Shown piece after piece: positions 24,796 through 46,547 of a stretch of 64,000 nucleotides of DNA. How positions within the stretch are numbered: position 1 is the stretch's first letter; each line of letters starts with the position of its first letter. The stretch is from a virus. Lineage: Duplodnaviria; Caudoviricetes. Where the stretch lies: IMG/VR virus record IMGVR_UViG_3300049141_000098, positions 160,001 through 224,000 of that record. One strand, written 5' to 3'. The position numbers and the translations under genes were made by a program. The notes under the pieces were generated by a model. It was not told the origin of the DNA. It made no database searches and was given only the letters and a program-made list of their open reading frames with translations.

Positions 24796-24812
24796 CCTTT
24801 CCGGTCCCGTAT

Positions 24813-24850: not shown

Positions 24851-24861
24851 ACCGGCAGGGG

Positions 24862-27914: not shown

Positions 27915-27970
27915 GGCGACACTCCCGGGCGCCCGGCGCGAACCGGGCACCCTAGGGCGCCTCCCGTCAG
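27915..27970 (-). repeat. Hairpin element B1
   Basis: GGCGACACTCCC-GGGCGCCCGG..CCGGGCACCC-TAGGGCGCCTCCCGTCAG. Confidence 0.85.
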
Positions 27971-28209
27971 AGGACAGTCACCCAGCGGTGGCACGTGATG
28001 AGCACGTGGTCGTAGTCGCCGGAGGTTGCCTCGGTCTGGAAGGCGTCACCCTCCTTCTCAGCCTTCGTGCGGTCCCAGCCCTCTACGTCGATGAGGTGCC
28101 GGATCAGGCCCTTCCGGACCTTCCGGAAGATCGCAACAGCGTTGCCGTCGACCCCCGTCAGTTCCACCTCACACTCGGGGTACTTCACACCCGTCTGGTT
28201 GTCGCTCAC
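27967..28209 (-). CDS. Conserved small phage hypothetical protein
   Basis: VELTG.DGNA.AI..KV...L and SGDYDHVL pattern; bracketed by B1/B2. Confidence 0.8.
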   Translation of the reverse strand: MSDNQTGVKYPECEVELTGVDGNAVAIFRKVRKGLIRHLIDVEGWDRTKAEKEGDAFQTEATSGDYDHVLITCHRWVTVL

Positions 28210-28238
28210 GTTTCTCCCCTCTCCGTATCGCCCCTGAT

Positions 28239-28294
28239 GGCGACACTCCCGGACCGTCGACCGGAGTCGACGACCCTAGGGCGCCTCCCGTCAG
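28239..28294 (-). repeat. Hairpin element B2
   Basis: GGCGACACTCCCGG-ACCGTCGAC CGGA GTCGACGA-CCCTAGGGCGCCTCCCGTCAG. Confidence 0.85.
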
Positions 28295-28629
28295 GTCTGC
28301 GAGCCCTCCCGGATCACGTCGGCGATGAAGTCGCCCAGCTCCGCCTTGTCCTGCGGCAGCTCGCCGTCCGGCGACAGCTTCTTCAGCAGCTCCACGACCA
28401 GGTGCGCAGCCTGATCCCGTCGCAGCGCCACGGCCTGACCAGATCTCCCGTAGGGGCCGGGGTAAGGGAATGAGAACTTCCCGTGTCCGCACAGACCATC
28501 CAGGACGATGTCGAACTCCTCCACCAGCCGAGCAGCCCGCTCGTTGTGCTTGCTGCGCAGGGTCTCGGCGTACTCGGCTGCCGTGGCAACCTGCACACGC
28601 CCCTCTCTCATTCCTTCACTGGTCAGCAC
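28291..28629 (-). CDS. Hypothetical protein
   Basis: GTG 28629 after SD. Confidence 0.7.
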   Translation of the reverse strand: MLTSEGMREGRVQVATAAEYAETLRSKHNERAARLVEEFDIVLDGLCGHGKFSFPYPGPYGRSGQAVALRRDQAAHLVVELLKKLSPDGELPQDKAELGDFIADVIREGSQT

Positions 28630-28654
28630 TCTCTTCCCCTCTCCGTAAGGATTC

Positions 28655-29206
28655 TCAGTCGGTCCCGAACACCTCAGGGCGCTCAACTTTCCACTGGATC
28701 CAGACCTTGTCCGGATGCTCGGTGCCGACGTGATGCACCAGATCCATCACCTGGTCCAGACGCAGCGGACCGGGCGCCTTGGCGTACTCGTACGGAGTGC
28801 CTCGACTGGAGGGCGGACCAGGGACGAAGGTGTGGCCAGACGTCCAGGATGACTTGCCGTAACCCCAGTCGCCAGGCCCGAACTTGATGAACACCGTGGC
28901 GCTGTTGCAATCGACGTCCAGCGGCCTGGCATCCAGTTTGGTCATGTCGTATCCGTGCACGGTCTGCCAGTAGTGCCTGTGATAGGCGATGAACGAGACC
29001 AGTTGCTGCACCTCGTGATCGGTGGGTCGTTCCGCAGAGGCGAACGGCCATGGCGGATCCCATTGCTCGCCGGTGTCGGCGAGGGTTCCGAGAAAGGCGC
29101 CCGTGTAGTGCCACGTGGGCCTGAAAGATGTCACCACCGGGATGCGCAGGGCGGTGAGGGGGTCGTGTTCGAGAGCGTCCGTCCCGAATGGCCAGTTGCT
29201 CGTCAT
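28655..29206 (-). CDS. Hypothetical protein
   Basis: ORF track; CGGAAAGGGAG SD. Confidence 0.8.
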   Translation of the reverse strand: MTSNWPFGTDALEHDPLTALRIPVVTSFRPTWHYTGAFLGTLADTGEQWDPPWPFASAERPTDHEVQQLVSFIAYHRHYWQTVHGYDMTKLDARPLDVDCNSATVFIKFGPGDWGYGKSSWTSGHTFVPGPPSSRGTPYEYAKAPGPLRLDQVMDLVHHVGTEHPDKVWIQWKVERPEVFGTD

Positions 29207-29221
29207 CCTTCTCCCTTTCCG

Positions 29222-29566
29222 TCAGACCTTCGGACCGGCGAAGATCGAGAGCCCCTGTGGCGTTCCGCCTGCACCGCAGATGCCGCAGAACCCGCCGCGA
29301 TGCGCATGCGGAATCAGCTCCGGAGCCTTCTCCAGAAACTCCTCCCGAACCCATCGGAGCGGGTGGTCACCCATCTTGAACAGCTCGTAGGCGGCCGAGT
29401 ACACCCCGTCGATGCCGACCAGGTCGTAACCCCGGACGTACCCTTCCAGGAACGGGAGCCTGGAACCCGCTTCCGGATTCGACGACGTGTCAATCCGCAC
29501 GTAGTCGCCGTCCTGGTACTTCAGCGGATTGCCGTTCGGGTCCCGCCAGACCTCACGCTCACTCAC
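29222..29566 (-). CDS. Hypothetical SH3-like protein
   Basis: YQDGDYVRI...WVREEFLE pattern. Confidence 0.7.
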   Translation of the reverse strand: MSEREVWRDPNGNPLKYQDGDYVRIDTSSNPEAGSRLPFLEGYVRGYDLVGIDGVYSAAYELFKMGDHPLRWVREEFLEKAPELIPHAHRGGFCGICGAGGTPQGLSIFAGPKV

Positions 29567-29672
29567 TCGTCCCCGCCTCCGCTTGGTGATCCCTGCGATT
29601 CCGTTGTGGACACTCCTGACCCTTGATCAGGAGCTTCTTGCAGTACCGGCATCGCTCGAAGTACTTGCTCAC
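29559..29672 (-). CDS. 37-aa Cys hypothetical protein
   Basis: CRYC..C; coupled. Confidence 0.5.
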   Translation of the reverse strand: MSKYFERCRYCKKLLIKGQECPQRNRRDHQAEAGTSE

Positions 29673-29685
29673 CGACTCACCCCGT

Positions 29686-30105
29686 TCAGATCTGCCGTGT
29701 GTGCGCCGAGTTGGCGGGCAGACAAGCCGGAGTGTTCCGGTCCCACGTGAAGCATCCGTCGCAGTACGCGTCTTCGGCATCGGCGTAAGCGTGGTCATCC
29801 GGCAGTACGAGACGACCACATCCGCCCTCGCAGGGGCAGATATGAGGGGCGTTTTCCACTGCGTCGACGCGGAAATGCAGCCCCGTCCCCGTTTCCACCG
29901 ACTCTTTGCCGAGGCCCTTGCTCATGACCTGCTCGGCGTATCGGTTGGCGACCTCCGGGTGCATCCACCCATCACGGTTCCGCAGTGCCCAGTACGCGAG
30001 CGTGAACAGCCTCCCCCTGGGGAGCGGTTCGGACACCGTGGCCTTGCCGTACTTCGCCTCCCCCTCGGGGGGCTGAATGATAGACAGGACGAAACCCGCT
30101 CCCAT
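29686..30105 (-). CDS. Hypothetical protein with C-terminal Cys cluster
   Basis: ORF track. Confidence 0.7.
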   Translation of the reverse strand: MGAGFVLSIIQPPEGEAKYGKATVSEPLPRGRLFTLAYWALRNRDGWMHPEVANRYAEQVMSKGLGKESVETGTGLHFRVDAVENAPHICPCEGGCGRLVLPDDHAYADAEDAYCDGCFTWDRNTPACLPANSAHTRQI

Positions 30106-30120
30106 CGCCTTCTCCCTTCC

Positions 30121-30462
30121 CTACTGGTCCTTGATGCCGTTCAGTGCGGCGCGAGCGACGGCGGGGGGAATGTGCGCCCCCACCAGAGCGCCGTACGCCC
30201 ACAGCCACGGGTCCTGATTGACGTCGAGCACGCCGTCCATCACTCGCTGCTCCAGGTAGAAGTAGTTGAGATCGCCATACGTCCCGAGGCCCCCAGCCTC
30301 GAAGAATCCGTCCAGCAGCGTCTCCGCGTACTCCCGGAACGACTCCGCCCCCGTCTTCCAGTCGGCGGCGACCAGCTCCCGGGCCTTGTCCATGAATCCG
30401 GGGGTCTTCGTCAGCTCATCGAAGAGCACGTCCCCGAGATACCGCTGCACCCTTCCGTTCAC
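30121..30462 (-). CDS. Hypothetical protein
   Basis: GTG 30462 after CGGAAAGGAG. Confidence 0.75.
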   Translation of the reverse strand: MNGRVQRYLGDVLFDELTKTPGFMDKARELVAADWKTGAESFREYAETLLDGFFEAGGLGTYGDLNYFYLEQRVMDGVLDVNQDPWLWAYGALVGAHIPPAVARAALNGIKDQ

Positions 30463-30482
30463 CCTCTTCTCCTTTCCGTGAC

Positions 30483-30785
30483 CTACTTGAAAGCCTGGTA
30501 GGCGTGCCCTCGCGCGAACCGGCCGTCGGCGGGCCATCCGTCGTACTTGGCGGCCACGAACCGAGGCTCTTCGAGGTTTCGCGCCACCGCCCATTCTTCT
30601 GCGGCCTGCCTTGCCAGCCGGGCGGTGAGGCTGAGCCTCTCGGCAGGCGACAAGGCATCCGAGGGGCCTTCCACCTCAATCCAAACCGCTTCCCAGGCTC
30701 TTGTATCGTCCCGTGTCACCGTGGGCTGATCGTCCTCCAGCCTCACGGCCCAGCCTTCCGGGATCTCTACTCGATCAGATGTCAC
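30483..30785 (-). CDS. Hypothetical protein
   Basis: ORF track. Confidence 0.7.
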   Translation of the reverse strand: MTSDRVEIPEGWAVRLEDDQPTVTRDDTRAWEAVWIEVEGPSDALSPAERLSLTARLARQAAEEWAVARNLEEPRFVAAKYDGWPADGRFARGHAYQAFK

Positions 30786-30812
30786 GCTTGCTCCAGCCTC
30801 TTCTGATTGACC

Positions 30813-30870
30813 GGCGACACTCCCGGACCCCCGGCGCGTGGCCGGTGGCCCTAGGGCGCCTCCCGCTCAG
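30813..30870 (-). repeat. Hairpin element B3
   Basis: GGCGACACTCCCGG-ACCCCCGGC..GCCGGTGG-CCCTAGGGCGCCTCCCGCTCAG. Confidence 0.8.
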
Positions 30871-31250
30871 GAGTTGAAGATGGTCCCCCAGTATTCCTTC
30901 ATGGGGGCCGCATCCTTCAGGTCGATATGCGGCCCCTGCCGAGGCTCCGGGTCCGGACCTTCCTGGTCGTGCGTGCAGCCGACGTACTCGTCCCCATACT
31001 TCAGGCCGTGCCGAATGAACGTTCCGCACGTGGCGCAGAACTCACACGAGTCGGACTCGCCGAGGATGACGACCTCTACCGTGGTGTCGTCCCCGAGGTC
31101 CAGTTCTCCCGGGTCGTTGCTGTCGAGTCCGGCCAGCACTTTCGACGGGACGCCGATGCTCTCCAGGACGACCGTCGCACAGTGCTCGTCACCGCACAGT
31201 GCGTACGCCGTGTTGGTGTATCCAGCGTGCGTGATCAGCACCTCGTACAC
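30867..31250 (-). CDS. Hypothetical Cys-rich acidic protein
   Basis: ORF track. Confidence 0.75.
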   Translation of the reverse strand: MYEVLITHAGYTNTAYALCGDEHCATVVLESIGVPSKVLAGLDSNDPGELDLGDDTTVEVVILGESDSCEFCATCGTFIRHGLKYGDEYVGCTHDQEGPDPEPRQGPHIDLKDAAPMKEYWGTIFNS

Positions 31251-31272
31251 AGCTTCTCCTCTCCGGTCCCGG

Positions 31273-31719
31273 TCACCCGAACTGCGGGTGCACCAGGTAG
31301 GGCCTCATGTGCGTGGCGGCACAGTCGTCGCAGACCCGGCCGACGTACTGGGCGATCTCATTCCCGGCCCCCGGTCCCATGTGAGGATGGCCGCCCTTGC
31401 CATCGAAGTGGGACTCGTGCTCGCAGTTGCACCGCTCGTACACGAGACGCGCAACCCGGTCCCAGTCGAGGCGGTGGAAGGTGTCCCGGTCGAGGCACTC
31501 CTTCAGATCGAGCACCTTGCGGGCGTCGTGCGACGGCTCGGAGTTCAGGTTGAAGCCGCCGTAAGGCGCCCCAAACAGCAGGAACTCGACCCAGCAGGGG
31601 AAGAGATGCGTCTTGTCCCGTTCGTCGACCTCGATGATCCGACGAGCCCTGGCCAGCAAGGCCTTCTCGTCGTATAGCCAATTGACAAGATCGTCAATAA
31701 GCATTCCGTCCACCGTCAC
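31273..31719 (-). CDS. Hypothetical protein with C-terminal Zn motif
   Basis: CNCEH...CDDC; GTG 31719. Confidence 0.7.
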   Translation of the reverse strand: MTVDGMLIDDLVNWLYDEKALLARARRIIEVDERDKTHLFPCWVEFLLFGAPYGGFNLNSEPSHDARKVLDLKECLDRDTFHRLDWDRVARLVYERCNCEHESHFDGKGGHPHMGPGAGNEIAQYVGRVCDDCAATHMRPYLVHPQFG

Positions 31720-31765
31720 CCGTTCTCCCCTTTCCATGTCACCACTCGCGACATCCGCGTGCGGC

Positions 31766-32137
31766 CTACTTGATTTCGTGGTTGACCGGGAGGATGACGG
31801 CTCCCTCGGGGTCTCCGATCTCCCGGTACTCACCATCCCCGAGCCAGGGCGTGTACCTCATGTGGACACCCTGTTTGCCGTCATACTTGGCGACTGCGCT
31901 GCACTCGCGCCTGAGCTGGGAGCCGATGTCGGCCCGCCCCCAGACGGCCGCCTCGATCTCGTGCACGACGGGGTTCTGGTGCACCATCACCCGCAGAGCG
32001 AAGTCGGCAGCGTCCAGCGCTGTCATCGGCCGGGGCAGGTCCACGACGCCCTCGATCCGGAAGTCGTACACCCGACTCCCATCCTTGTTGACGCCGTTGA
32101 TGATCACTCGCCACGTGTCCTGCTTGCGGTCACTCAC
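31766..32137 (-). CDS. Hypothetical protein
   Basis: ORF track. Confidence 0.7.
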   Translation of the reverse strand: MSDRKQDTWRVIINGVNKDGSRVYDFRIEGVVDLPRPMTALDAADFALRVMVHQNPVVHEIEAAVWGRADIGSQLRRECSAVAKYDGKQGVHMRYTPWLGDGEYREIGDPEGAVILPVNHEIK

Positions 32138-32140
32138 AAA

Positions 32141-32308
32141 TCAATCCTCCGGCTCGGCGACGATCGCAGCGATACGCTTCAACTTGTCGGCTGACAAGTC
32201 CTTCCACTTGGTCTCGCCGGTTGCCGTCGTCAGCTTGATTTTCCCGCCGTTGTCCAGGTCCCCGAGGTCCCGGATCAGAGCGGCTCCGTAGTTGAACTCG
32301 TCACCCAT
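32141..32308 (-). CDS. 55-aa hypothetical protein
   Basis: Read by eye; IKL...TGETKW motif like 43718-43909. Confidence 0.6.
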   Translation of the reverse strand: MGDEFNYGAALIRDLGDLDNGGKIKLTTATGETKWKDLSADKLKRIAAIVAEPED

Positions 32309-32341
32309 CGTTCCCGTTCTCCATTCCGTGTCCGGCGTGCA

Positions 32342-32376
32342 CGTCAGTGGCCGATCCCGGAGGACCGGCCACTGAC
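32342..32376 (-). terminator. Intergenic hairpin
   Basis: GTCAGTGGCCG/CGGCCACTGAC inverted repeat. Confidence 0.55.
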
Positions 32377-32385
32377 GAACTCGTC

Positions 32386-32395
32386 GGCCTAGGCC
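32386..32395. promoter_or_regulatory. Palindrome C7 GGCCTAGGCC
   Basis: Intergenic; preceded by TACCTT on minus strand. Confidence 0.75.
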
Positions 32396-32449
32396 AAGGT
32401 ATCAGACCTTGGTTGCTTGTTCGTGACCCTTGACCGAACTGTGTTCTGG

Positions 32450-32719
32450 TCAGAAGTCGTTGCGCGTCCTAATGTGCAGCGCCCCCGTGTTTCGGCTGCG
32501 CATCACGACCTTGCCGGGCTTGGCGTAGGTGCGCGGCTCATCTACCGTCCACACCCGCCCGTCCCGGTCCGGGTTGTTCTTGTGGTGCGACGCGACCTCC
32601 ACGACCGTGCACGGCTCCCGAGATCCGGTCTCAACCAAGTTGGTCGTGATGGTCACCGTCCCTCCCGGCACTCGCACCGTGAGGGATCCCTCCGGCAGAT
32701 CAATCTCCCGGTTATCCAT
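32450..32719 (-). CDS. Hypothetical protein
   Basis: ORF track. Confidence 0.7.
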   Translation of the reverse strand: MDNREIDLPEGSLTVRVPGGTVTITTNLVETGSREPCTVVEVASHHKNNPDRDGRVWTVDEPRTYAKPGKVVMRSRNTGALHIRTRNDF

Positions 32720-32733
32720 GCCCGTCCCTTTCG

Positions 32734-33438
32734 CTAGTACCTGCTCGGCGGCCGGAACGTGACGGTCACCCGCGCCGCCCGTCCGCCGCAGTAGGCGTTG
32801 TCCGGGTCGTACTTGGTCAGCTCGACCCCCTTGCTGGTCCGTCGGACCGTGAAGTCGTCCCCCTCCTTCGGCCAGTCAGAGCCTGTGAACAGGGACCACC
32901 CCTGCCACTTCGCCGGGGCGAACTCGATGCGCTTCCCGTCGTTCCCAGTGATCTGGCGGACGCCCCGGAACTCGTTGCAGCCGTGGCTGAACCAGTCCGC
33001 CGACCAGCCGGGCTCGACCTCGTTGACCAGATCCCGCAGCAGGGCGTAGTCACCAGGGAAGATGACGTTCGCGCCGGACACCTTCGCCCCAGACTGCTTC
33101 ACTCCCGGCTCAGCGAACACCGGACGGTACGGCTCCCGGGAATCAGGGAACTCGACCCCCGGGGGAGCCTGATCGACTTCTGGCGCCTGGGGTCCCCGAA
33201 GGAGGTGGGGGCTGCTCGACGGCCCCGGCTCGACGCTCTCGAACGGCACGAGGATGGCCGCCGCCTCCGCGCGCTGCACTTCGTAGTGACCGGCGTATCG
33301 ATGCCCCTCACCGAAGCGGACCCGGGCCAGGCCGTACGTGACGCCCTCTCGCAGGATCACCTTCACCCGGAACCCGATCACCGGGTGCCCCTCGCCAAAG
33401 CGGACCTTGGCCGTGCCGTAGACCGTGCTGTTACTCAC
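32734..33438 (-). CDS. Hypothetical protein
   Basis: GTG 33438; internal repeat ARVRFGEGH x2. Confidence 0.7.
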   Translation of the reverse strand: MSNSTVYGTAKVRFGEGHPVIGFRVKVILREGVTYGLARVRFGEGHRYAGHYEVQRAEAAAILVPFESVEPGPSSSPHLLRGPQAPEVDQAPPGVEFPDSREPYRPVFAEPGVKQSGAKVSGANVIFPGDYALLRDLVNEVEPGWSADWFSHGCNEFRGVRQITGNDGKRIEFAPAKWQGWSLFTGSDWPKEGDDFTVRRTSKGVELTKYDPDNAYCGGRAARVTVTFRPPSRY

Positions 33439-33731
33439 GTCGCTCTCCCTTCCGTTAACCAGTCTCGGGGGATGACCCGGAAGGGCTGACACCCCGGCCG
33501 CTTGGCCGCCGCCTCCCGGGCGTCGAAGAGGGTGCCGCGAATGGTGCCCATCCGGGTCAGCCGGATCGCGTACTCCTCGTCGGCCGCACAGAAGGCCCGG
33601 AATAGCATCCGAGCCTGCTCCTTGTCCTCCGCCGCCACCCAAGCGACAGAAGCAAGCATGTCGTCCTCGCCGATCCCCAGGGGTTCCCACTCCTCCGGAG
33701 ACTGGATCACAAAGCTGTCGCCCTCGCTCAC
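33435..33731 (-). CDS. Hypothetical protein
   Basis: GTG 33731 coupled; in-frame TTA at 33456-33458. Confidence 0.65.
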   Translation of the reverse strand: MSEGDSFVIQSPEEWEPLGIGEDDMLASVAWVAAEDKEQARMLFRAFCAADEEYAIRLTRMGTIRGTLFDAREAAAKRPGCQPFRVIPRDWLTEGRAT

Positions 33732-34288
33732 GTGCCCGACTTCAGCTTGTCCCGCTCGGCAACGTGGCCGAAGGTGATCGACGGGGGCGAGGCGTTGAAG
33801 TGCGGGTACAGGTGCTCGACGATGCGCACGGCGTACGCGTTCAGGGCCCGCTGCGAGTCCGGCTCGTAGGTGCCGTAGTTCACCTCGCCGTACGGGTTCG
33901 CCGTGAACACGCCCCACGTCCGCTTGCTGTCGCAGTAGGCCAGGATCGTCCCGCGCAGCCGTCCGCCGTCCGCCGTGGCGTTGAGGTACTGAACGGCCGC
34001 CACCTTGTACTCCTCGCCCGCCACGTTCACGGTGTCGCCGAGTTCGAGCACCTTGTACTCACGGTGCGACTCCAGGACCTTGATCAGCTCTTCCCGCTCG
34101 TCCGGGGTGAGGGCGATGTGACCTCCGTCCTGAACCTTGGTCCAGGATTCATCCGCATTGAGCGTACCGATCTCCAAGACCGAGTTACGCGACGTCGGCA
34201 ACCACTCCACCCGGCCGATCACCCCCAGGGTCGCCTTCGCCTTGCTGGCAACCGCCTTGCCCAGTGCGCGCGTCAGCATCTTGATCAC
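33728..34288 (-). CDS. Hypothetical protein
   Basis: ORF track; CGGAAAGGGAG SD. Confidence 0.8.
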   Translation of the reverse strand: MIKMLTRALGKAVASKAKATLGVIGRVEWLPTSRNSVLEIGTLNADESWTKVQDGGHIALTPDEREELIKVLESHREYKVLELGDTVNVAGEEYKVAAVQYLNATADGGRLRGTILAYCDSKRTWGVFTANPYGEVNYGTYEPDSQRALNAYAVRIVEHLYPHFNASPPSITFGHVAERDKLKSGT

Positions 34289-34372
34289 GTTTCTCCCTTT
34301 CCGTCATGCCCCACCACGGGGCGCGTCAGCGCCCGGCACTTGTCCGGGCGCTCCCGTGCCGCGTAGTGAAGG

Positions 34373-34624
34373 TCAGTCCCGATTCGCGTCGTCGGGGTCG
34401 ATGCCGTTCTCCTCCAGCAGCGCCCGCAGTTGGGCGTTCTCCGTCCGCAGGTTGTTCTCCCGGCGCTTGCCGTTGTCCCGGGCGTAGATGTCGGCAACCA
34501 TCAGCTCGATCTCCGGGTCCCGGTCCGGATCCTCGGGGTCGGGCGTGTAGGCGATCGGCCGCTCGTACCCGGGGTTCTCCTCACGGTATTTCCAGTCCAT
34601 CATGTCGTCGTAGTCCGGTCGCAT
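34373..34624 (-). CDS. Hypothetical protein
   Basis: ORF track. Confidence 0.7.
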   Translation of the reverse strand: MRPDYDDMMDWKYREENPGYERPIAYTPDPEDPDRDPEIELMVADIYARDNGKRRENNLRTENAQLRALLEENGIDPDDANRD

Positions 34625-34642
34625 GTCAGCGTCTCCCTTCCG

Positions 34643-35143: not shown

Positions 35144-35173
35144 GTGTTCCGTTCTCCCTTCCGTCGGTCTTCG

Positions 35174-35389
35174 TTAATCCCGAGGGATCTTGCCCCGGTC
35201 GTCCCAGATCTCCAGCACCCGGTGCCAGGGGATCAACACCTCCGAGGCGGCGCCAGTCGGAATGATGATGCCCCGGGCGGACTCCTCCCACTTTGAAGCC
35301 GTCTCCCGTTGATCCGCCTTGCTCAAGAACGTGATCGACTTCACGCTCACCTCCGTCGGTACGACACGGACGCGCACGACTCTCGTCAT
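35174..35389 (-). CDS. Hypothetical protein
   Basis: ORF track. Confidence 0.7.
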   Translation of the reverse strand: MTRVVRVRVVPTEVSVKSITFLSKADQRETASKWEESARGIIIPTGAASEVLIPWHRVLEIWDDRGKIPRD

Positions 35390-35413
35390 GCACGCCCGAA
35401 CCGCACGGCCCGG

Positions 35414-36082: not shown

Positions 36083-36106
36083 CCCGTTCCCCTTTCCGCT
36101 ACGTTT

Positions 36107-36776: not shown

Positions 36777-36827
36777 TCAGCCTTCTCCCTTCCGTCCCCA
36801 TTCGTCCCGTTCATGCTGATCAGGAAC

Positions 36828-36870
36828 ACACTGGAAGATTCCGAATTCGCTCCGGAATCTTCCCGAACGT
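36828..36870 (-). repeat. Hairpin element A3
   Basis: ACACT-GGAAGATTCCG..CGGAATCTTCC-CGAACGT. Confidence 0.85.
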
Positions 36871-36887
36871 TCCCGTCCGGCTGGCCG

Positions 36888-37400: not shown

Positions 37401-37451
37401 CCCCTTCTCCCTTCCGTCCGCATTCGCGGTAATTCGCACCCGATCGGAGAT

Positions 37452-37502
37452 GCACTGGAAGATTCGGAACCGGATTGGAAGGCTCCGAATCTTCCCGAAC
37501 GT
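37452..37502 (-). repeat. Hairpin element A4
   Basis: GCACT-GGAAGATTCGGA..TCCGAATCTTCC-CGAACGT. Confidence 0.85.
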
Positions 37503-37519
37503 CACCGATCAGACCTGTG

Positions 37520-38579: not shown

Positions 38580-38618
38580 GATCGTTTCATTCCCTTTCCA
38601 TTTGTCCGCGCCATACAG

Positions 38619-38656
38619 GCACTGGAAAGCGCGACCGTGTCGCGCCCTCCCGAACC
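38619..38656 (-). repeat. Hairpin element A5
   Basis: GCACT-GGAAAGCGCGAC CGT GTCGCGCCCTCC-CGAACC. Confidence 0.8.
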
Positions 38657-38668
38657 GGCATGCCCCGG

Positions 38669-38959: not shown

Positions 38960-38974
38960 CCGTCCCCCTTTCCG

Positions 38975-39274: not shown

Positions 39275-39359
39275 GCCTAACTCCCTTCCGTCAGGACCAC
39301 CCGGCCCCACGGAGCCGCACGGAGTTGCCCCCATGCCGCCCCGAAGTGCGATGTTCCGA

Positions 39360-40027: not shown

Positions 40028-40063
40028 GCTTCTCCCCTTTCCGTCCGTCTTCAGGGTTGTCCG

Positions 40064-40564
40064 TTACGCCGGGTCCCCAGCGTGCAGTACCGTCCCCTCC
40101 GGGACGCCTGTCGCTGACCAGCGCACCTGCGTGTCCTGGTCCCCGACCACGTGATAGAGCTGATAGCAGTACTCCTTGCCGTCCCGGTACTCGGCGAACC
40201 GCTCCGCGTATTCCCGAGCCATTTCGACCGTCGGGAAGGGAATGTTCCACGCTTCCGCGTGCCGGTAGTAGCCGCTTCCGCCGCCGATGATCGGCATGAT
40301 CCGGAATCGCTCGCCCTCCGGCGGCATGTCACCTTCGAAGAGCCATCCGTCCGTGGATCCCCAGCCGCGCGTCTTGGCGAACTCCCGGTCGGCCGATTCC
40401 CGCGTCTCGTGCTGCGTGACCTTGACTTCCCGTTCGTACCGGTGGCCGCAGCGCGGAGGCCATCCGCCCGGCGTCCGGTTCCATACCGGGCGCGGACCCG
40501 GGTCGTATCCCGGCTCCGTTTTCTCGCAGCACGGCTCCAGCACCATCACCGTGATCATCTTCAC
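40064..40564 (-). CDS. Hypothetical protein
   Basis: ORF track. Confidence 0.75.
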   Translation of the reverse strand: MKMITVMVLEPCCEKTEPGYDPGPRPVWNRTPGGWPPRCGHRYEREVKVTQHETRESADREFAKTRGWGSTDGWLFEGDMPPEGERFRIMPIIGGGSGYYRHAEAWNIPFPTVEMAREYAERFAEYRDGKEYCYQLYHVVGDQDTQVRWSATGVPEGTVLHAGDPA

Positions 40565-40806
40565 GCCTCTCGAACCTTGTGCTGCGTGTCAGCGTCCAGC
40601 ACCACGTTCGTCCCCTTGACCAGGACGTACGGCGTCCCGCCGTTCCCGTAGACCATGACGTAGACTCGCCGCCACACACCCAGATATTCGATCATGTGGG
40701 CCGTCGGGATCTTCCCGCCGTACCCGGTCACGGTGTGCCCGCTCACCGGCACCTCCGTGACCTTGACTCCCGTCACGCCCTCCGGGTCCGTGTACTCGAT
40801 ACTCAT
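40561..40806 (-). CDS. Hypothetical protein
   Basis: GYGGKIPT..M...G.WRRVY pattern. Confidence 0.75.
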   Translation of the reverse strand: MSIEYTDPEGVTGVKVTEVPVSGHTVTGYGGKIPTAHMIEYLGVWRRVYVMVYGNGGTPYVLVKGTNVVLDADTQHKVREA

Positions 40807-40822
40807 CCGCTTCTCCCTTCCG

Positions 40823-41314
40823 TCAGTCCCGAGTGTTGCGCAGCGCCATCAGTGCCGCTTGATCGTCCCGGCAGGCATGTACGGTCAGCTCACTGACTCC
40901 GACGTACTTCGCGAGGATGATGCACGCCCGCAGGTACTCCGCCGAGACGTCCGCCATCGGCCGCCCGCCCGCCGTGGTGTCGTCTGGCCCGTACCCCTGG
41001 TTTCGGGCGAACTCGGCCGCCCCATAGGCGCTCATCACCTGAGAGATCAGTTCGACCTCAAAGCGATCCCGTTCCCGGCCATCCCCCTGGCCCTTCTGCA
41101 CGGCCTTCCAGGCCCCCAAAACCCTTCCGTAGTGGCTGGACGCCTCGATGGCCACGTAACGCATGGGGTTGCCCAACGGAAGGCGCCCCCGCAGATCCCC
41201 CTCCGTCTCCGACATGGTCTGCGTCGTGACCCGCAACCACTGGTCGAACCCGTCCGCCTCCCGACCTCCCAGGGGGTTGCGCTTCCGGTCCGGCGTCTCC
41301 GTGAACAGCGCCAT
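40823..41314 (-). CDS. Hypothetical protein
   Basis: ORF track; SD. Confidence 0.75.
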   Translation of the reverse strand: MALFTETPDRKRNPLGGREADGFDQWLRVTTQTMSETEGDLRGRLPLGNPMRYVAIEASSHYGRVLGAWKAVQKGQGDGRERDRFEVELISQVMSAYGAAEFARNQGYGPDDTTAGGRPMADVSAEYLRACIILAKYVGVSELTVHACRDDQAALMALRNTRD

Positions 41315-41352
41315 GTTCGGTTCCTCTCCCTTTCCGTCTTCCGTGATCCCGC

Positions 41353-41736
41353 TCAGTGCTGCGGCTGACCGATCTCAGGCAACGGCCGCTCCCGGGGGAC
41401 TTCCCGGCCTTCCCGGCTGTAGCACTCGGCCACCCATTCCCGGACCGCGCGCATCTCCTCTGAGCCGACCCGCCAGGTCGGTTCGTCGCCCCACAGGGGG
41501 GTGGTTCCCGTCGGATCCGGCCCGTCCATGAACGTCGCGGCCGTCCAGTCCGTGACGAACTGGCCGACGACCGTAAACGGCGTTCCCGTTTCGGGGTGCC
41601 GGGCGGTGAATCGGTGGCGCAGGTCGAACCACAGAACACGTCCCGCCTTGTCCCTCTGGTGGTCCTCCGCCTCCGTGTCCAGCACCACCAGGAACGGAAC
41701 TCCCGTGACCCCGGCCGTCGTCCTCATGTGCAGCAT
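41353..41736 (-). CDS. Hypothetical protein
   Basis: ORF track. Confidence 0.75.
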   Translation of the reverse strand: MLHMRTTAGVTGVPFLVVLDTEAEDHQRDKAGRVLWFDLRHRFTARHPETGTPFTVVGQFVTDWTAATFMDGPDPTGTTPLWGDEPTWRVGSEEMRAVREWVAECYSREGREVPRERPLPEIGQPQH

Positions 41737-41830
41737 CCCGTTTCCCCTTCCCGTCGTTCCCGGCGAACCGCCGTGATCACAGAGGAGCGCGGAGTGGTCC
41801 CCGCGCTCCCCTGAAACCGGACGCTCCCCG

Positions 41831-42439
41831 TCAGACTGTCGGCCGATTGTTCGTGATCAGATCGATCATGGGATGATCGGCGTACTTGCCGGGTTCGGTG
41901 GCGAACGCCATCATCACGTCCTCCCCCTTCCGGTCGTTTACGATCCGGCGGAACTCCGCCAGGCTCACGCCCGTGTATGCCCGCGCGAACTGCACCGTGA
42001 CTTCGTGATCCAGTTCGATGCGCGCGACCGTCTCCGGCTTCCCGGTACTCCGGGCCATCGGGAACATCTCGGCCGTCCACATGATCTCGCGGGCGAGGCT
42101 GCACTCCCAGTGCCGTACCGAATCGTCGTAGAACTTGGCCTCCCCGTTCGCGTCACACCGGTTGAACCGGGACCGCCTGGAGAGCAGGGAGAGGAACCTG
42201 TCGCGATCGACCCCGTCCGCCCAGAACGCCTCCCACGTGGGCCGGATCCCGCGCACCGCCGCGCCGTTCGCGTAGCCGCTGGCCAGATGGGCGAACCGTC
42301 GCCACACCGTCACCGCGTTCTGTGATTCCTGGTTCAGGTAGCCCGGCTGTCCCGGCCCGGGGCGCCCGTCGTGCTTGCGCTTCGCGCTGGTCAGGTGGTC
42401 GGCCAGCAGCCCGTGAAATTCCGCCAGAGTACGTCCCAT
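41831..42439 (-). CDS. Hypothetical protein
   Basis: ATG 42439. Confidence 0.75.
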   Translation of the reverse strand: MGRTLAEFHGLLADHLTSAKRKHDGRPGPGQPGYLNQESQNAVTVWRRFAHLASGYANGAAVRGIRPTWEAFWADGVDRDRFLSLLSRRSRFNRCDANGEAKFYDDSVRHWECSLAREIMWTAEMFPMARSTGKPETVARIELDHEVTVQFARAYTGVSLAEFRRIVNDRKGEDVMMAFATEPGKYADHPMIDLITNNRPTV

Positions 42440-42461
42440 GGTCCCGTTTCTCCCTTTCCGA

Positions 42462-42761
42462 TTACGCCACCAGACCCGCGCGAATCGGGTCCGGCTCCCA
42501 GGTTTTTGTCTGTCCGTCATGGTGCGTGTACGTGACCGTGACGGACTCCACCCGCAACACCGTGTACCGGCCGGTCGAATCGGTCCGGTACGTGGTCGCG
42601 ACTTCCAGCTCAGTCCCGTTGCTCAGGTTGTTGCGCAGCCTCCCGGCCAGCAGGTCAGCGATGTTGTCGTCCGTCGCGAACCGCAGTGCGACGTACTCAC
42701 CCCACCCGCACTCATTACAGCGGCAGTCCCAAGGGTCGACTGCGATCAGTCGCACACTCAC
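42462..42761 (-). CDS. Hypothetical protein
   Basis: DPWDCRCNECGWGEY motif. Confidence 0.7.
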   Translation of the reverse strand: MSVRLIAVDPWDCRCNECGWGEYVALRFATDDNIADLLAGRLRNNLSNGTELEVATTYRTDSTGRYTVLRVESVTVTYTHHDGQTKTWEPDPIRAGLVA

Positions 42762-42778
42762 GATCCCGCCCTTCCGCG

Positions 42779-42997
42779 CTACTCGCGAAGCCCGCAGGCC
42801 CGCTTGAATTCCACGGCGTTGAAGGCCCTGTTGCGCTCCGTGAACAACCGGACGAACCGGTCGGCGACACCGTCAAGGGCGTCCATCGCTTCTCGGATGT
42901 ACATGCCTTCCACGGGGCCGTCGCTCAGCTCCCAAGGGTGTTGTTCGAGTTCTGCCCGAATCTCCCGGGCGACGTCCTCCGGCGTCAGTCCGTCCAT
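42779..42997 (-). CDS. Hypothetical protein
   Basis: A..F...F...N..FN...F..ACG pattern. Confidence 0.7.
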   Translation of the reverse strand: MDGLTPEDVAREIRAELEQHPWELSDGPVEGMYIREAMDALDGVADRFVRLFTERNRAFNAVEFKRACGLRE

Positions 42998-42999
42998 GG

Positions 43000-43413
43000 T
43001 CAGATCCCGTTGCTCTCGCGCTTGCCGTACGTGCCGACCAGGCCGATGGACAAGCGACACCCGCCGCATGTCACCCCGGCCAGAGCCGTACCCGACTCCC
43101 ACACAGCCAGATCCCGCCCCTGCGAGTCGGCGCAGACTCCGCGCGGAGCCTCCCCGTCCTCCTTGGGCAGCACCAGCGCGTGACGCCTGCCGTCCGTGTC
43201 CTGGCCGACGTGATGGATGCGGACCGTCGGTGCGTAGATGAACAGCGTGCCGCCGGTCTCGTAGTGCCTCCCACCGTTCGTATCGAACCAGAACGGCCGC
43301 CCTTCCGGGCTTGCCGACAGCGTGTCCAGCACGACCGCGCCACCGTCACTCGGCTTCAGGCTCCCGCGCGTGATCTCACCGATCTCGACGCGAACGGCTC
43401 CCATGCGTTCCAT
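43000..43413 (-). CDS. Hypothetical protein
   Basis: ATG 43413. Confidence 0.7.
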   Translation of the reverse strand: MERMGAVRVEIGEITRGSLKPSDGGAVVLDTLSASPEGRPFWFDTNGGRHYETGGTLFIYAPTVRIHHVGQDTDGRRHALVLPKEDGEAPRGVCADSQGRDLAVWESGTALAGVTCGGCRLSIGLVGTYGKRESNGI

Positions 43414-43421
43414 AGCGCTCC

Positions 43422-43721
43422 TCACTGACCCTTGACGGGGTTCGTCAGGGCCAGGTCCATCCCGTCGCCTGCTGCGGCGGACAGAACGACGTGCCGGGTG
43501 TCGTCGTGCATCCTGCCGTCTGTGTCGAGCAGACCGTAGCCGGACAGCACGCTCCCCAGGTTGCCGAACGGCAGGTGGCTGGGGTTGCGCGCGATCTGCA
43601 CCGCCTCGAACAGTGCCAGGGGGTGTGCGTCCCGCACGACCTGAAGGGTCATCAGGGTTGTGCGCACGGTCGGCTCCGCAACGCTGCTGCCATCCTTCAG
43701 TTCCAGCATTTCCATAGTCAT
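43422..43721 (-). CDS. Hypothetical protein
   Basis: ORF track. Confidence 0.75.
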   Translation of the reverse strand: MTMEMLELKDGSSVAEPTVRTTLMTLQVVRDAHPLALFEAVQIARNPSHLPFGNLGSVLSGYGLLDTDGRMHDDTRHVVLSAAAGDGMDLALTNPVKGQ

Positions 43722-43909
43722 TCCTCCCGCTCTGCAACCGCTTCGACCGTGGCCGTGATCATCACCTCGTACACGTCCACCGGCAGAGCCAGCCAGCGGG
43801 AATCCCCAGTCGGCCCCTCCGCCTTGACCCGGACCGTTTCGACCGGCCCTCCAGCCCCCTCCTTGAGCGCCCTACGCAACTCCCGCTCGACGTACTCTGC
43901 GTTCGTCAT
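43718..43909 (-). CDS. Hypothetical protein
   Basis: ATG 43909; VKAEGPTGDSRWL. Confidence 0.7.
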   Translation of the reverse strand: MTNAEYVERELRRALKEGAGGPVETVRVKAEGPTGDSRWLALPVDVYEVMITATVEAVAEREE

Positions 43910-43925
43910 GATCTGCCTCTCTCCC

Positions 43926-44105
43926 TTACTTCTTTCCGAGCAGGCCCGCGCGGTAGCCCTCGCGCCAGGCATCAGCGACCGCACCGCCTTGGTAGGCAAG
44001 CGGGATCTCCGGCGCCCCCGACCCTGGGTTTTCTCGCTTCCAGCGGCCCCACTTGCGACCGTTCGCCCGCGCGTCCTCAATGAGGCTGCGCCTCTGTTCG
44101 GGCAT
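43926..44105 (-). CDS. Small hypothetical protein
   Basis: ATG 44105; AWREGY tail. Confidence 0.65.
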   Translation of the reverse strand: MPEQRRSLIEDARANGRKWGRWKRENPGSGAPEIPLAYQGGAVADAWREGYRAGLLGKK

Positions 44106-44126
44106 TTTCCTCTCCCATCCGGTAAT

Positions 44127-44170
44127 GCACTGGAACGCTCCGGTCACCCTTCCGGAGCGTTCCCGAACGT
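44127..44170 (-). repeat. Hairpin element A6
   Basis: GCACT-GGAACGCTCCGG..CCGGAGCGTTCC-CGAACGT. Confidence 0.85.
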
Positions 44171-44180
44171 CACGGGATGA

Positions 44181-44513
44181 TCAGACGTACGGAGTCTCCC
44201 GGTACTCCGCGAGCGCTTCCCGGATACGGTTCTGGCAGCCGGACGTGGACGGGGTGTACTTGACGTCCGGCACCACCCAGCCACCGTCCCGGCTGTCGAT
44301 CCAGGCGACCGGCGTCCCGTAGTGGTAGACGACGTGCGAGGCGTGCTCGATGTCCTTCCGCCACTCTTCGGGCAGACGGTTCGGGTCACCGGTCGGGCTG
44401 GCTCCGAGCTGTGCGGCCCCGCGCGGGAGCCTCCCGTCCGATCCGCCGCGCCCCATGTTGATCACGTGCTGGAGTTCCTGCCACGTTCCGGTACCGATCG
44501 TCATTCCGAACAT
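44181..44513 (-). CDS. Conserved phage-type hypothetical protein
   Basis: VVYHYGTPVAW..W.VP..KY..STS..Q pattern. Confidence 0.8.
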   Translation of the reverse strand: MFGMTIGTGTWQELQHVINMGRGGSDGRLPRGAAQLGASPTGDPNRLPEEWRKDIEHASHVVYHYGTPVAWIDSRDGGWVVPDVKYTPSTSGCQNRIREALAEYRETPYV

Positions 44514-44575
44514 GTCCCGTTTCTCCCTCTCCGTCTTTCGCTATCTCTTCGCAGATTCTAGTGATCAGATGACGC

Positions 44576-44585
44576 GACCTAGGCC
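44576..44585. promoter_or_regulatory. Palindrome C8 GACCTAGGCC
   Basis: Intergenic; TAGAAT -10-like hexamer downstream on minus strand. Confidence 0.75.
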
Positions 44586-44610
44586 AATCGACATCATCGT
44601 GACCCGTTCG

Positions 44611-45150
44611 TTACCGGGGCGGCAACTTCGCCAGCCCGACGAGCACCTGACCGATCTCGTCGTCGTACTCCTCCGCGATCATGAGGCGGCTCTCGTACTC
44701 CAGGACCCCGGAGGGGAAGTCGCAGGTCCAGTCGTCCCCATCGCCCGGGTAGCCGGTCGCCATCGACGTGTCGACGCTGTAGCGGTCGCTCAGCTTGGAC
44801 GAGAGGGATACGCCCCACCCGTTCGACAGGACCAGGCGCATGACCGAACGCGGTTCGTCCCCCTCGTAAGCGGGCTCCCACTCCCACGGACCAATCACGG
44901 TGGCTCCGTAACGCAGGGACAGGCGTTCCCCCGCGTTCGTCAGCTCCCGCGTCATCCACTCCCGGTACGTCATCCCGTCCGTCTCGACGTCGAACCGGGC
45001 AGACTCGACGTCGTACCCCTGCACGATGCACCAGCCGCGCATGTATCCCTGCGCTTCCGCCGCGCTCCCGGCGGGGATCTCCGCCCGCTTGTTCACCGTC
45101 CCGTACATCGGGTGACTCGCCGTGGCTTTGATGCCGTAGATCTTGGTCAC
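44611..45150 (-). CDS. Hypothetical protein
   Basis: ORF track; LSNGWGVS pattern. Confidence 0.8.
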   Translation of the reverse strand: MTKIYGIKATASHPMYGTVNKRAEIPAGSAAEAQGYMRGWCIVQGYDVESARFDVETDGMTYREWMTRELTNAGERLSLRYGATVIGPWEWEPAYEGDEPRSVMRLVLSNGWGVSLSSKLSDRYSVDTSMATGYPGDGDDWTCDFPSGVLEYESRLMIAEEYDDEIGQVLVGLAKLPPR

Positions 45151-45229
45151 GCCCCTTTTTTCCTTTCCGTCACGCTCCCGAACCGGGAACCCACGGAGTA
45201 CGTCCCGCAGCGCGGAACGCCCCCGAAGA

Positions 45230-45406
45230 TCACCGCCCCCTGGGCTTCAAGGCCTCACGCATGGCGAGCACCAGGAAGACAAACCCAATACTGATGAACA
45301 CCTCCCCCAGGGCTACGTGCACGGTTGCGTCCACCAGGTAGACGCCGCCGAGCAGATAGAAGATCGTCCCGGCGCACATGGCGTGGAATCTTCTGTCTTT
45401 GCCCAT
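45230..45406 (-). CDS. 58-aa two-TM membrane protein
   Basis: Read by eye: MGKDRRFHAMCAGTIFYLLGGVYLVDATVHVALGEVFISIGFVFLVLAMREALKPRGR. Confidence 0.65.
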   Translation of the reverse strand: MGKDRRFHAMCAGTIFYLLGGVYLVDATVHVALGEVFISIGFVFLVLAMREALKPRGR

Positions 45407-45434
45407 CGCTCCCCGTTCCTACCCGTACGCCGGA

Positions 45435-45809
45435 TCAGACCGTGCGGCGTGTTGAATGCTGGTCTCGGGGGTCGATCGCCGGAAGATCCCGCAGCACGGC
45501 TACCGCCTTCCGCGCCGCCTTCAGCACCACATCCGACGTCCCAGCAGACTCCCCACCGTTCACGACCGGCGTCGACTGATCCGTGCGCCACGGCGTCCCG
45601 TCGTACGTGACGTCACGCAGCGGGACCGTCTCCCGAATCGTGATCATGTCGATCCGGCCGGTGTCGGCCTTCCACATGAGGGAGATCCCGCGCTTGTTGG
45701 CCAGCCACACCCGCGCAACCTGGTCCCCCTTGTGCGGGCCCGTGAACGGCCCTTCCACCGCCGCATTGAACTCCAGCGACAGATGACCGGCCACCTGCAA
45801 AGCGTCCAT
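45435..45809 (-). CDS. Hypothetical protein
   Basis: ORF track. Confidence 0.75.
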   Translation of the reverse strand: MDALQVAGHLSLEFNAAVEGPFTGPHKGDQVARVWLANKRGISLMWKADTGRIDMITIRETVPLRDVTYDGTPWRTDQSTPVVNGGESAGTSDVVLKAARKAVAVLRDLPAIDPRDQHSTRRTV

Positions 45810-45867
45810 TCCCGTCCCTCCCTCTCCGTTACTTCGCTGGCAAATCCGCGCTTTGACTTCCGAACGG

Positions 45868-46176
45868 TCAGCCCTGCCGGTCGCCCATGGGCGGATACGT
45901 CGCGCCCGGGGCGGGCTCCCGCTTGTGCCACGGGGTGTCGTCCCCAGTCGTCGCGCTTCCGTCTGCGAGATCCTGCGCCCGGACCGCGTAGCCGTCCCGG
46001 TACGCCCGGCACAGGATCCCGTCCGGCCCGTCGGCGTACATGAATGGCACGTCCGTCACCTCCGTGGCGAACGGCTCCCGGTAGGTTTCGCTGTAGTCGT
46101 GCGCCCGGTCGGCGTCGTCCCGTCCGTGCTCCCACGCCTCCGCCGCGTCCGCGTTCTGCGCGAACTCCGACGGCAT
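45868..46176 (-). CDS. Hypothetical protein
   Basis: ATG 46176 (GTG 46191 alternative). Confidence 0.7.
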   Translation of the reverse strand: MPSEFAQNADAAEAWEHGRDDADRAHDYSETYREPFATEVTDVPFMYADGPDGILCRAYRDGYAVRAQDLADGSATTGDDTPWHKREPAPGATYPPMGDRQG

Positions 46177-46219
46177 CCCTTTGCTGGTCACCCTGGTCCC
46201 CTTTCCGTTGTCCGTGCCG

Positions 46220-46277
46220 GGCGGCACTCCCGGGCAACCGGTCTCACGACCGGTTGCCCTAGGGCGTCTCCCGTCAG
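46220..46277 (-). repeat. Hairpin element B4
   Basis: GGCGGCACTCCC-GGGCAACCGGTC TCAC GACCGGTTGCCC-TAGGGCGTCTCCCGTCAG. Confidence 0.85.
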
Positions 46278-46456
46278 GTACAGGCCCCGTGCGTTGTACG
46301 TCCGCGCGGGACCGTCCCGGAGGGGTCGGCCAGCATCGCGCGGGGCGTGATGTTGCTTCCGAAGTACACGCCCTTCCCCCGGTAGTCGTTCGTCGCGTCA
46401 CCCCGGTCAGGGTCCTGCGCCGCCCGATGCCGCGCCATCTTCACCGTGTGCGTCAT
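46274..46456 (-). CDS. Small hypothetical protein
   Basis: ORF track; bracketed by B4/B5. Confidence 0.65.
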   Translation of the reverse strand: MTHTVKMARHRAAQDPDRGDATNDYRGKGVYFGSNITPRAMLADPSGTVPRGRTTHGACT

Positions 46457-46485
46457 GTCCCGTTTTCCCTTTCCGAATGGTGTCA

Positions 46486-46547
46486 GGCGACACCCCCGGG
46501 CGGTCGGAATGTCTCCCGGCCGCCCTAGCGCGACTCCCTGACGTCAG
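46486..46547 (-). repeat. Hairpin element B5 (divergent)
   Basis: GGCGACACCCCC-GGGCGGTCGG..CCGGCCGCCC-TAGCGCGACTCCCTGACGTCAG. Confidence 0.75.

Follow-up and report, generated by a model that had tools for sequence, protein, structure and literature searches.

The subject of this analysis is element B, a sequence of about 70 bases repeated between genes in a 64,000-nucleotide stretch of viral DNA (hereafter the window), which comprises bases 160001-224000 of IMG/VR record IMGVR_UViG_3300049141_000098, a complete 259,646-bp record with direct terminal repeats and 63.6% G+C. The sense-strand structure of B, its intercistronic position and its conservation above that of the neighbouring genes, together with a bulged helix of about two turns and a second fold that would put a hairpin at the start of the downstream message, point to a cis-acting element of the early polycistronic mRNA, not to a DNA site or a junk repeat. 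According to covariation and structure prediction, B is a sense-strand RNA structure, and its 3' flank has two mutually exclusive, covarying and nearly isoenergetic partners, which is a new feature.

Five copies, at 27915, 28239, 30813, 46220 and 46486, had been proposed in an earlier note made from the sequence of the window, each starting at or near an upstream TGA and followed by a Shine-Dalgarno (SD) sequence. Both claims were borne out. There are exactly five copies in the whole genome, all within the window and all transcribed on the - strand, and each begins 1-5 nt past a TGA, with the SD and start codon 25-35 nt further on. A search with a 17-nt core allowing up to 3 mismatches gave six matches against 0.53 expected (0 of 100 shuffles), five of them the B copies and the sixth (35448) not the element. 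For a whole-genome pattern of the paired flanks, the + strand matches were exactly the five B copies and the sole - strand match was not the element. In the covariance model search that the earlier note had proposed as a check, using a model (R1) built from 19 copies, the window copies scored 62-76 bits and the next best match, the antisense of one copy, scored 28 bits.

On the - strand, the layout of B is UGA, 1-5 nt, GGGAG-N-CGCCCUAGGG, a copy-specific stem of 10-12 bp, a loop of 4-5 nt and CCCGGGAGUGYCGCC. Four parts are distinguished: the 5' flank after the UGA, hairpin 1, the 3' flank (A-GUGYCGC) and a downstream complement. The element thus reaches further 3' than first described, into a second hairpin (hairpin 2). 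Both flanks are conserved. Hairpin 1 has a conserved lower part (CCCUA-GGG/CCC-GGG) with a bulged A and a covarying upper stem, and the junction CCCU-A-GGG/CCC-GGG-A, with its two bulged A, is conserved as well. The stems, previously described as variable but paired, are indeed fully paired and differ between copies, but a CCGG/CCGG core of the upper stem is nearly invariant, so the stem is only partly variable.

Among 50,697 GenBank phage records, the only DNA relatives were seven Streptomyces phages of 184-200 kb (Satis, Quantum, Kradal, EhyElimayoE, Frankenweenie, JustBecause and Kela). B was also found in these phages, among them Kela, Satis, Frankenweenie and JustBecause, and in seven IMG/VR contigs, where true copies scored 61-77 bits with R1 and everything else, namely antisense reads of the same copies and generic hairpins, scored at most 28 bits. 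Each genome carries 3-5 copies in a fixed syntenic layout: three copies (classes I, II and III) lie within 1.5-3 kb, each behind a particular gene, and a single copy of class IV, identified by UGACGUCG, is located 12-15 kb upstream with respect to transcription. Every copy sits between cistrons in the orientation of the genes, and the 5' flank starts 0-5 nt behind the stop codon in each of the 36 distinct copies. In the genomes scanned with the model, B was confined to the leftward early arm and to this one orientation. B is the best-conserved DNA of the region, being the sole blastn match in 4.5 kb of Kela (90%), and the flanking proteins are about 40-65% identical across phages compared with 85-90% for the flanks of the element.

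A search of one genome from each of 185,579 bacterial and archaeal species gave no true copy, and its four pattern matches scored only 13-21 bits, the level of chance, indicating that B was not borrowed from the host. The window gave no Rfam match at gathering scores, the best weak matches reaching 12-17 bits against thresholds of at least 45. A looser pattern gave at least 115 stretches in IMG/VR, which were taken as noise, none of the 79 new loci scanned with the model having reached E<=0.001. B is unannotated in the GenBank records, and no description of it was found in the literature on these phages. In Kela (MT310898.1, 165887-166027), annotated gene 303 (46 codons) is called across B and hairpin 2 and is probably a miscall; a conserved small open reading frame (ORF; GTGATGAG...) begins downstream of the gene 303 start. 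By sequence comparison, B is specific to one clade of 185-260-kb Streptomyces phages.

In the alignment of the 36 distinct copies, which was fitted to the model structure, 95.0% of 756 cells pair, compared with 36-49% when the partners were slid by 1-3 columns, and both sides change in nine pairs (62 cells), counts reached by 0 of 500 shuffles. The same helix was obtained in an independent MAFFT/RNAalifold run, and the window copies fold clearly below shuffled controls (z -2.2 to -5.2). Several conserved pairs are G.U and become C.A on the opposite strand, so the sense strand folds better, with -41.0 versus -33.2 kcal/mol for the antisense (7.8 better) and the sense strand ahead in 34 of the 36 copies. 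In class III, the junction shows a concerted change of U to C along with G to A, which turns CTAG into CCAG. Recent duplication alone, without compensatory changes in homologues, which the earlier note had raised as a way to explain the conserved flanks, does not account for B, since compensatory changes are present. The irregular helix formed by the flanks, also claimed there, was recovered: the lower stem alone is 94.4% paired, compared with 30-60% when slid, with a G-C to A-U exchange at position 17/64 and changes of G.U to G-C or A-U elsewhere.

When longer sequences were folded, GUGYCGC of the 3' flank could pair with its immediate downstream complement instead of the 5' flank. In state A, the 3' flank pairs with the 5' flank, giving a helix of 23-24 bp with bulged A24 and A60 and a predicted energy of -31 to -43 kcal/mol. 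State B consists of hairpin 1 and hairpin 2, the latter beginning with the base that follows the bulged A and ending on the AC of the ACGGAAAGG SD region. In 20 distinct sequences, hairpin 2 is 95.5% paired, compared with 28-56% when slid, and both sides change in four of its eight pairs (15 cells; 0 of 500 shuffles), two of them exchanging U-A for C-G and the other two C-G for U-A. The predicted energy is -10.9 kcal/mol with a sequence's own downstream partner versus -8.3 kcal/mol with partners of a foreign class, and the own partner beats the mean foreign partner in 21 of 28 sequences. When the three segments were tabulated, the 5' flank, the 3' flank and the downstream partner were seen to change together. 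The predicted energy was -39.2 kcal/mol with the downstream segment blocked and -38.2 kcal/mol with the 5' flank blocked, which mimics a ribosome on the UGA. Over 38 sequences, state A minus state B was -1.0 +/- 2.6 kcal/mol, and the RNAalifold consensus is state A. The SD and start codon are predicted to be equally accessible in the two states (0.67 in each), indicating that unmasking of the ribosome-binding site (RBS) is not the output; classic translational coupling through SD unmasking was ruled out on this ground. The coordinates of the copies and of the adjoining genes are listed in the table.

Table. Copies of element B and adjoining genes in the window (window coordinates; scores with covariance model R1)
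Feature	Position	Strand	Description
B1	27900..27969	-	TGA of the 80-aa gene at 27967-27969; 3' flank 27915-27926; 66.6 bits
B1 hairpin 2	down to 27900	-	GUGUCGCCU/GGGCGAUAC
B2	28225..28293	-	TGA of the gp333-like gene at 28291-28293; hairpin 1 stem with UCGUCGAC; 64.4 bits
B2 hairpin 2	down to 28225	-	8 bp
B3	30813..30869	-	TGA at 30867-30869; extra G before GGGAGG; orthologue of class I; 69.3 bits
B3 folds			long hairpin present; sole window copy without a convincing hairpin 2
B4	46214..46276	-	TGA of the 60-aa orphan gene at 46274-46276; 12-bp upper stem; 76.3 bits
B4 3' flank and hairpin 2			5-bp hairpin 2 (GUGCC/GGCAC); both match the 3' side of class IV in relatives
B5	46479..46546	-	most diverged copy; TGA at 46544-46546, then CGUCA as in class IV; 62.4 bits
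B5 hairpin 2			GGUGUC/GACACC, 6 bp; GCUAGG replaces CCUAGG in this copy
28-aa small ORF	27796..27882	-	downstream of B1; conserved; motif GKQADEIRRK
80-aa gene	27967..28209	-	between B2 and B1; phrog_1933
Gene upstream of B2	28291..28629	-	stop fused to B2; homologue of Frankenweenie gp333 and Satis gp308
127-aa gene	30867..31250	-	stop fused to B3
60-aa orphan gene	46274..46456	-	between B5 and B4
116-aa gene	46544..46894	-	stop fused to B5; operator-type GGCCTAGGCC palindrome just upstream, at 46920

The mechanism that is tentatively favoured, with somewhat less than an even chance of being right, is intercistronic processing combined with end protection, much as in the early mRNAs of T7 and SP82. 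State A would serve as a double-stranded substrate for a host enzyme of the RNase III type, which would cleave on the 3' side close to the bulged A, in analogy with the early sites of T7 and SP82. The upstream mRNA would then end in hairpin 1, which would protect its 3' end, and the freed 3' flank would refold into hairpin 2 at the new 5' end and shield the downstream mRNA beside the polypurine RBS. Cutting could depend on translation, since a ribosome that terminates at the fused UGA would sit on the 5' flank and force the RNA into state B. Being repeats, the copies also act as crossover points by which small genes are deleted or inserted. That B might be a processing or regulatory element had been suggested before, and the suggestion fits the sense-strand structure with its G.U pairs, the covariation in homologues and the intercistronic site, its functional part being an inference.

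In T7, RNase III sites (R0.3, R0.5, R1, R1.1 and R1.3) lie between the early genes. B resembles the T7 and SP82 sites in forming a family of related hairpins in the intercistronic spaces of the early polycistronic mRNA of a large lytic phage, with about two helix turns, conserved bulges or an internal loop and sequence conservation around the irregular region, in the assumed use of a host enzyme and in an upstream message left with a 3' hairpin. A helix of at least about 20 bp with a conserved bulge, as at those sites, is predicted for state A of B (23-24 bp). The location of B between cistrons and its lack of sigma-70 promoter and U-tract signals would likewise be in keeping with a site of this kind. 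The two differ in that there is no relation in sequence, B is fused to a stop codon and its cleavage is a prediction; moreover, the 3' strand of B has a second covarying partner, which would give a 5'-terminal hairpin after the cut. To our knowledge, no such alternative pairing has been described for the T7 or SP82 sites. The early mRNA of SP82 carries Bs-RNase III sites (Panganiban and Whiteley 1983, cited in PMC4838370).

Several points weigh against processing. Its functional steps rest wholly on structure prediction, comparative sequence analysis and analogy, and no RNase III gene was found in the phage, so a host enzyme must be assumed. Fitting the 36-copy alignment to the model structure favours the pairing counts, and since the sequences come from no more than 4-5 orthologous positions in about 15 genomes of related phages, the counted cells exceed the number of independent events. 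The lower stem is for the most part invariant, and its covariation therefore lends modest support. In addition, hairpin 2 is not convincing in B3, and a lower-stem mismatch is present in every class IV copy, B4 and B5 among them.

A rather unlikely alternative is that B senses termination: a ribosome stopped at the fused UGA would flip state A to state B, and the conformation would set initiation or decay of the next cistron, possibly by way of an RNA-binding protein, of the phage or the host, that recognises the conserved region of the bulged A. The stop codon stands just ahead of the 5' flank in all 36 distinct copies, and the 7-9 nt covered by a terminating ribosome are those with which the toggling 3' flank pairs. 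The near-isoenergetic states and the covariation of both helices fit this reading as well, and the conserved sequence in the lower part of hairpin 1, beside drifting loops and upper stems, suggests sequence-specific recognition. Against it stand the equal accessibility of the SD and start codon in the two states, the ordinary frequency of the TGA and of the preceding C at a genome third-position G+C of about 0.8-0.9, and the flanking proteins, which have no Pfam family and no mutual similarity and include one PHROG of unknown function, no binding protein being identified. On the same grounds, the flanking proteins were ruled out as a paralogous or known RNA-binding family. Doubtful as it is, a ribosome-actuated switch in which termination unzips the lower helix and passes the 3' arm to a downstream partner, and which doubles as a portable linker for new small genes, would be of a kind not described before. 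If true, the mRNA would report translation of the upstream gene and would gate cleavage, decay or initiation of the next. A stop read-through or SECIS-like role was rejected, since in B1, B2 and B4 a TAG lies four codons past the TGA, B3 and B5 being in a different frame.

A signal at the level of transcription, i.e., a tail-less terminator or attenuator, or a nut- or put-like site that modifies RNA polymerase after one or more operator-controlled first genes, is quite unlikely. Tail-less terminators or attenuators have been reported for the early genes of phiC31, and the GC-rich hairpins of B (-31 to -43 kcal/mol) would suit such a function. The order of operator, one gene and class IV element, which is kept in the window and in nine relative loci, recalls pR-cro-nutR-tR1 of lambda, and state B, with two stem-loops one unpaired base apart, recalls the put RNA of HK022. 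However, no T-run or U-tract follows any of the five copies, and mycobacterial RNA polymerase reportedly needs a U-tract in vitro (Czyz et al. 2014). Canonical hairpin-plus-T-run terminators occur elsewhere in the genome, at 82758-82785 (-) and 82116-82179 (+), indicating that the phage does not generally lack the U-tract that is missing at B. B was rejected as an intrinsic terminator, the hairpin being present and the T-run missing after every copy. A sigma-70 promoter scan gave no promoter-like site around the five copies. With neither a promoter nor a U-tract terminator, and only 25-35 nt before the next start, the downstream genes must be reached by read-through, and efficient termination would silence them. 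The copies also stand in tandem around single small genes, and their variable loops exclude loop recognition of the N-boxB type. All genes between about 20 and 51 kb are on the - strand according to a codon-position G+C map and an SD-aware ORF map. No public RNA runs are listed with this DNA, the listed runs being soil and rhizosphere DNA only.

Gene gain and loss were observed at several junctions that carry B. Between the gp333/gp308 homologue and the small ORF, Satis has 20 nt and no element, Frankenweenie has one element, and the window has B2, the 80-aa gene and B1. The 28-aa ORF of the window is the orthologue of a 23-33-aa ORF that follows class III in Frankenweenie and directly follows gp308 in Satis. 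The 80-aa gene (phrog_1933) is absent from the nearest Streptomyces relatives and has homologues in 115 phage records, from phages of Mycobacterium, Microbacterium, Arthrobacter, Listeria and Campylobacter; since it is missing from the former and present in phages of other genera, this small gene looks to have been acquired as a cassette and to travel widely. The duplication that gave B2 and B1 is about 95 nt long, beginning at the stop codon and extending into the opening codons of the following ORF. At the position of B5 and B4, relatives have a single class IV element whose 5' side corresponds to B5 and whose 3' side corresponds to B4, and the window has the 60-aa orphan gene in between. 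No homologue of that gene was found by tblastn against the GenBank phages, and an IMG/VR peptide-pattern search with the 60-aa and 80-aa proteins confirmed no close relative.

Kela and one IMG/VR phage carry a chimeric single copy whose left part is of class II and whose right part is of class III, the switch falling within GCCGCUC, which the two classes share; both phages lack the gene that sits between classes II and III in JustBecause and Frankenweenie. A 183-aa gene (28655-29206, -) lies between the gp334 and gp333 homologues where relatives have class II, so the window phage lacks class II at that junction. No consistent target-site duplication was found around B, and the Y1 transposase family PF01797 had no match in the complete genome, in which controls matched. 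The only tyrosine recombinase of the phage is a 368-aa Xer-like protein (Phage_integrase plus a SAM-like N-terminal domain) encoded outside the window at genome position 239185-240291 (+), and it is absent from five B carriers (Kela, Satis, Frankenweenie, JustBecause and one complete IMG/VR relative). Homologous exchange between copies is thus supported by sequence, with no dedicated recombination enzyme implied; of the recombination element envisaged in the earlier note, the chimeras and duplications uphold exchange between copies, and a site for a dedicated enzyme is not upheld.

These observations bear on two further readings. It is very unlikely that B is a selfish or neutral repeat, i.e., a small mobile or gene-converted intergenic sequence that is merely tolerated. 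Its presence varies at orthologous junctions and its copy number ranges from 3 to 5, as such a repeat would allow, but it occupies the same four gene junctions, its flanks are far better conserved than the flanking proteins, compensatory changes keep both helices, no target-site duplication is visible, and it keeps to one arm and one orientation. Least probable of all, and highly improbable, is a DNA-level site, whether a folded single-strand cassette recombination site of the attC or REP/RAYT kind or a variant operator of the CCTAGG regulator: two small genes that each stand between two copies at sites where relatives carry a lone copy without the gene, the empty orthologous junction in Satis, the CCCTAGGG palindrome and an attC-like anatomy of conserved lower stem, two extrahelical A and variable centre would suit it, but there is no Y1/HUH transposase, the only tyrosine recombinase is missing from five relatives that carry B, the chimera crossed over within shared sequence as homologous recombination predicts, the B2/B1 duplication runs into the next start codon with no fixed end site, the structure depends on G.U pairs that are C.A on the other strand, class III copies lose CTAG and the palindrome and keep the pairing, and the operator consensus is unmatched in both half-sites. 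An integron attC site was rejected because the aligned copies have no GTTRRRY core with R''/L''-L'/R' boxes and the Xer-like recombinase is not shared by the five carriers.

The tetranucleotide CTAG is strongly depleted in the genome (140 observed versus 868 expected). CCTAGG holds 45 of the 140, of which about 33 fit YGG-CCTAGG-CCR, and it occurs mostly as the palindrome YGGCCTAGGCCR; with about a third of CTAG in operator-like CCTAGG, this word accounts for much of what remains. The earlier note had remarked that B carries the CCTAGG core of the operator. The core is present in four of the five window copies, B5 having GCTAGG, but the link is superficial: B reads C-CCTAGG-G, so that the base adjacent to the core differs from the operator in both half-sites, and B5 and the class III copies are without CCTAGG, indicating that B is not a copy of the operator. 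For the same reason, B was rejected as an operator of a GntR/HutC-type CCTAGG regulator, for which YGG-CCTAGG-CCR is expected.

Other repeated elements of phages and bacteria offer partial parallels. PeSL elements are mobile regulatory cassettes of T4-type phages that consist of a sigma-70 early promoter and a terminator stem-loop (Arbiol et al. 2010, PMC2839356; PMC4122927). Like B, they are repeated composite motifs that run from an upstream stop to a downstream SD and start, lying in a variable early region whose small genes have unknown functions, and recombination between copies, found also for B, explains insertions, deletions and replacements among related phages. In contrast, B has no sigma-70 promoter, is GC-rich with a bulged lower stem and two folds, and occurs in 3-5 copies per genome. 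In Cluster K mycobacteriophages, the 13-bp SAS and the adjacent ESAS, whose 17-bp arms are separated by a spacer of 4-13 bp, have been described (Pope et al. 2011, PMC3203893). These are likewise actinophage-specific, oriented intergenic repeats just before start codons, with imperfect inverted-repeat arms and a variable centre, tied to particular gene families across related phages and suspected of a post-transcriptional role, but their sequence is unrelated, and B has a self-complementary centre, an anchor at the upstream stop and a toggling 3' flank. REP/BIME elements are similar in being imperfect palindromes beside a conserved tetranucleotide, outside genes, that can stabilise upstream mRNA. 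The parallel to RAYT/HUH substrates drawn in the earlier note is not supported. REP copies are numerous and scattered, frequently form inverted pairs and keep a GTAG-type tetranucleotide next to the palindrome, whereas copies of B are few, co-oriented and syntenic, there is no RAYT or Y1 transposase gene, B was not found in the bacterial genomes searched, and its CTAG lies inside the stem as the context of the bulged A and is CCAG in class III.

Further RNA features were observed around B. Before most - strand starts between 20 and 51 kb, a polypurine motif, approximately ACGGAAAGGGAGAA(ACGGGAC)AUG, is present (for example at 27886-27903, 28213-28229 and 46460-46475), which extends complementarity to the very 3' end of 16S rRNA, and hairpin 2 ends on its first two bases. 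Behind the 28-aa ORF, a strong hairpin at 27741-27795 (-), GGGGCGGC...GCCGCCCC, is followed by UUCGGGAGGAGGGG and the next start, and a similar hairpin lies in the equivalent region of Frankenweenie (L007, about 2660-2700). A second and more numerous family of intergenic hairpins (family A) on the - strand has arms GUUCGGGA...UCCAGUG, conserved G.A/U.U mismatches and variable upper stems, and was seen at 24796-24861, 34289-34372, 35345-35413, 36777-36887, 37401-37519, 38580-38668, 39275-39359, 41737-41830, 44514-44610, 45151-45229 and 47279-47392. Many of these copies are followed by CAU-AC-GGA, and CGGGAG on the 5' side and AGUG on the 3' side are common to them and B; a genome-wide pattern for this family was too loose to be informative.

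Small genes of unknown function make up nearly all of the early regions of jumbo actinophages, and little is known of how their expression is organised. B provides a defined and conserved RNA signal in such a region, one whose predictions are testable in culturable phages (Satis, Kela and JustBecause, on S. lividans or S. scabiei), and its chimeric and duplicated copies document how conserved intergenic linkers drive the gain and loss of genes. If processing is correct, the T7/SP82 model would extend to high-GC actinophages with a new design, in which one strand is first part of a nuclease substrate and later a protective hairpin at the 5' end; if termination sensing is correct, B would represent a new way to couple neighbouring cistrons. 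As a compact module from stop to start, B might also serve as an insulating part in the engineering of Streptomyces operons.

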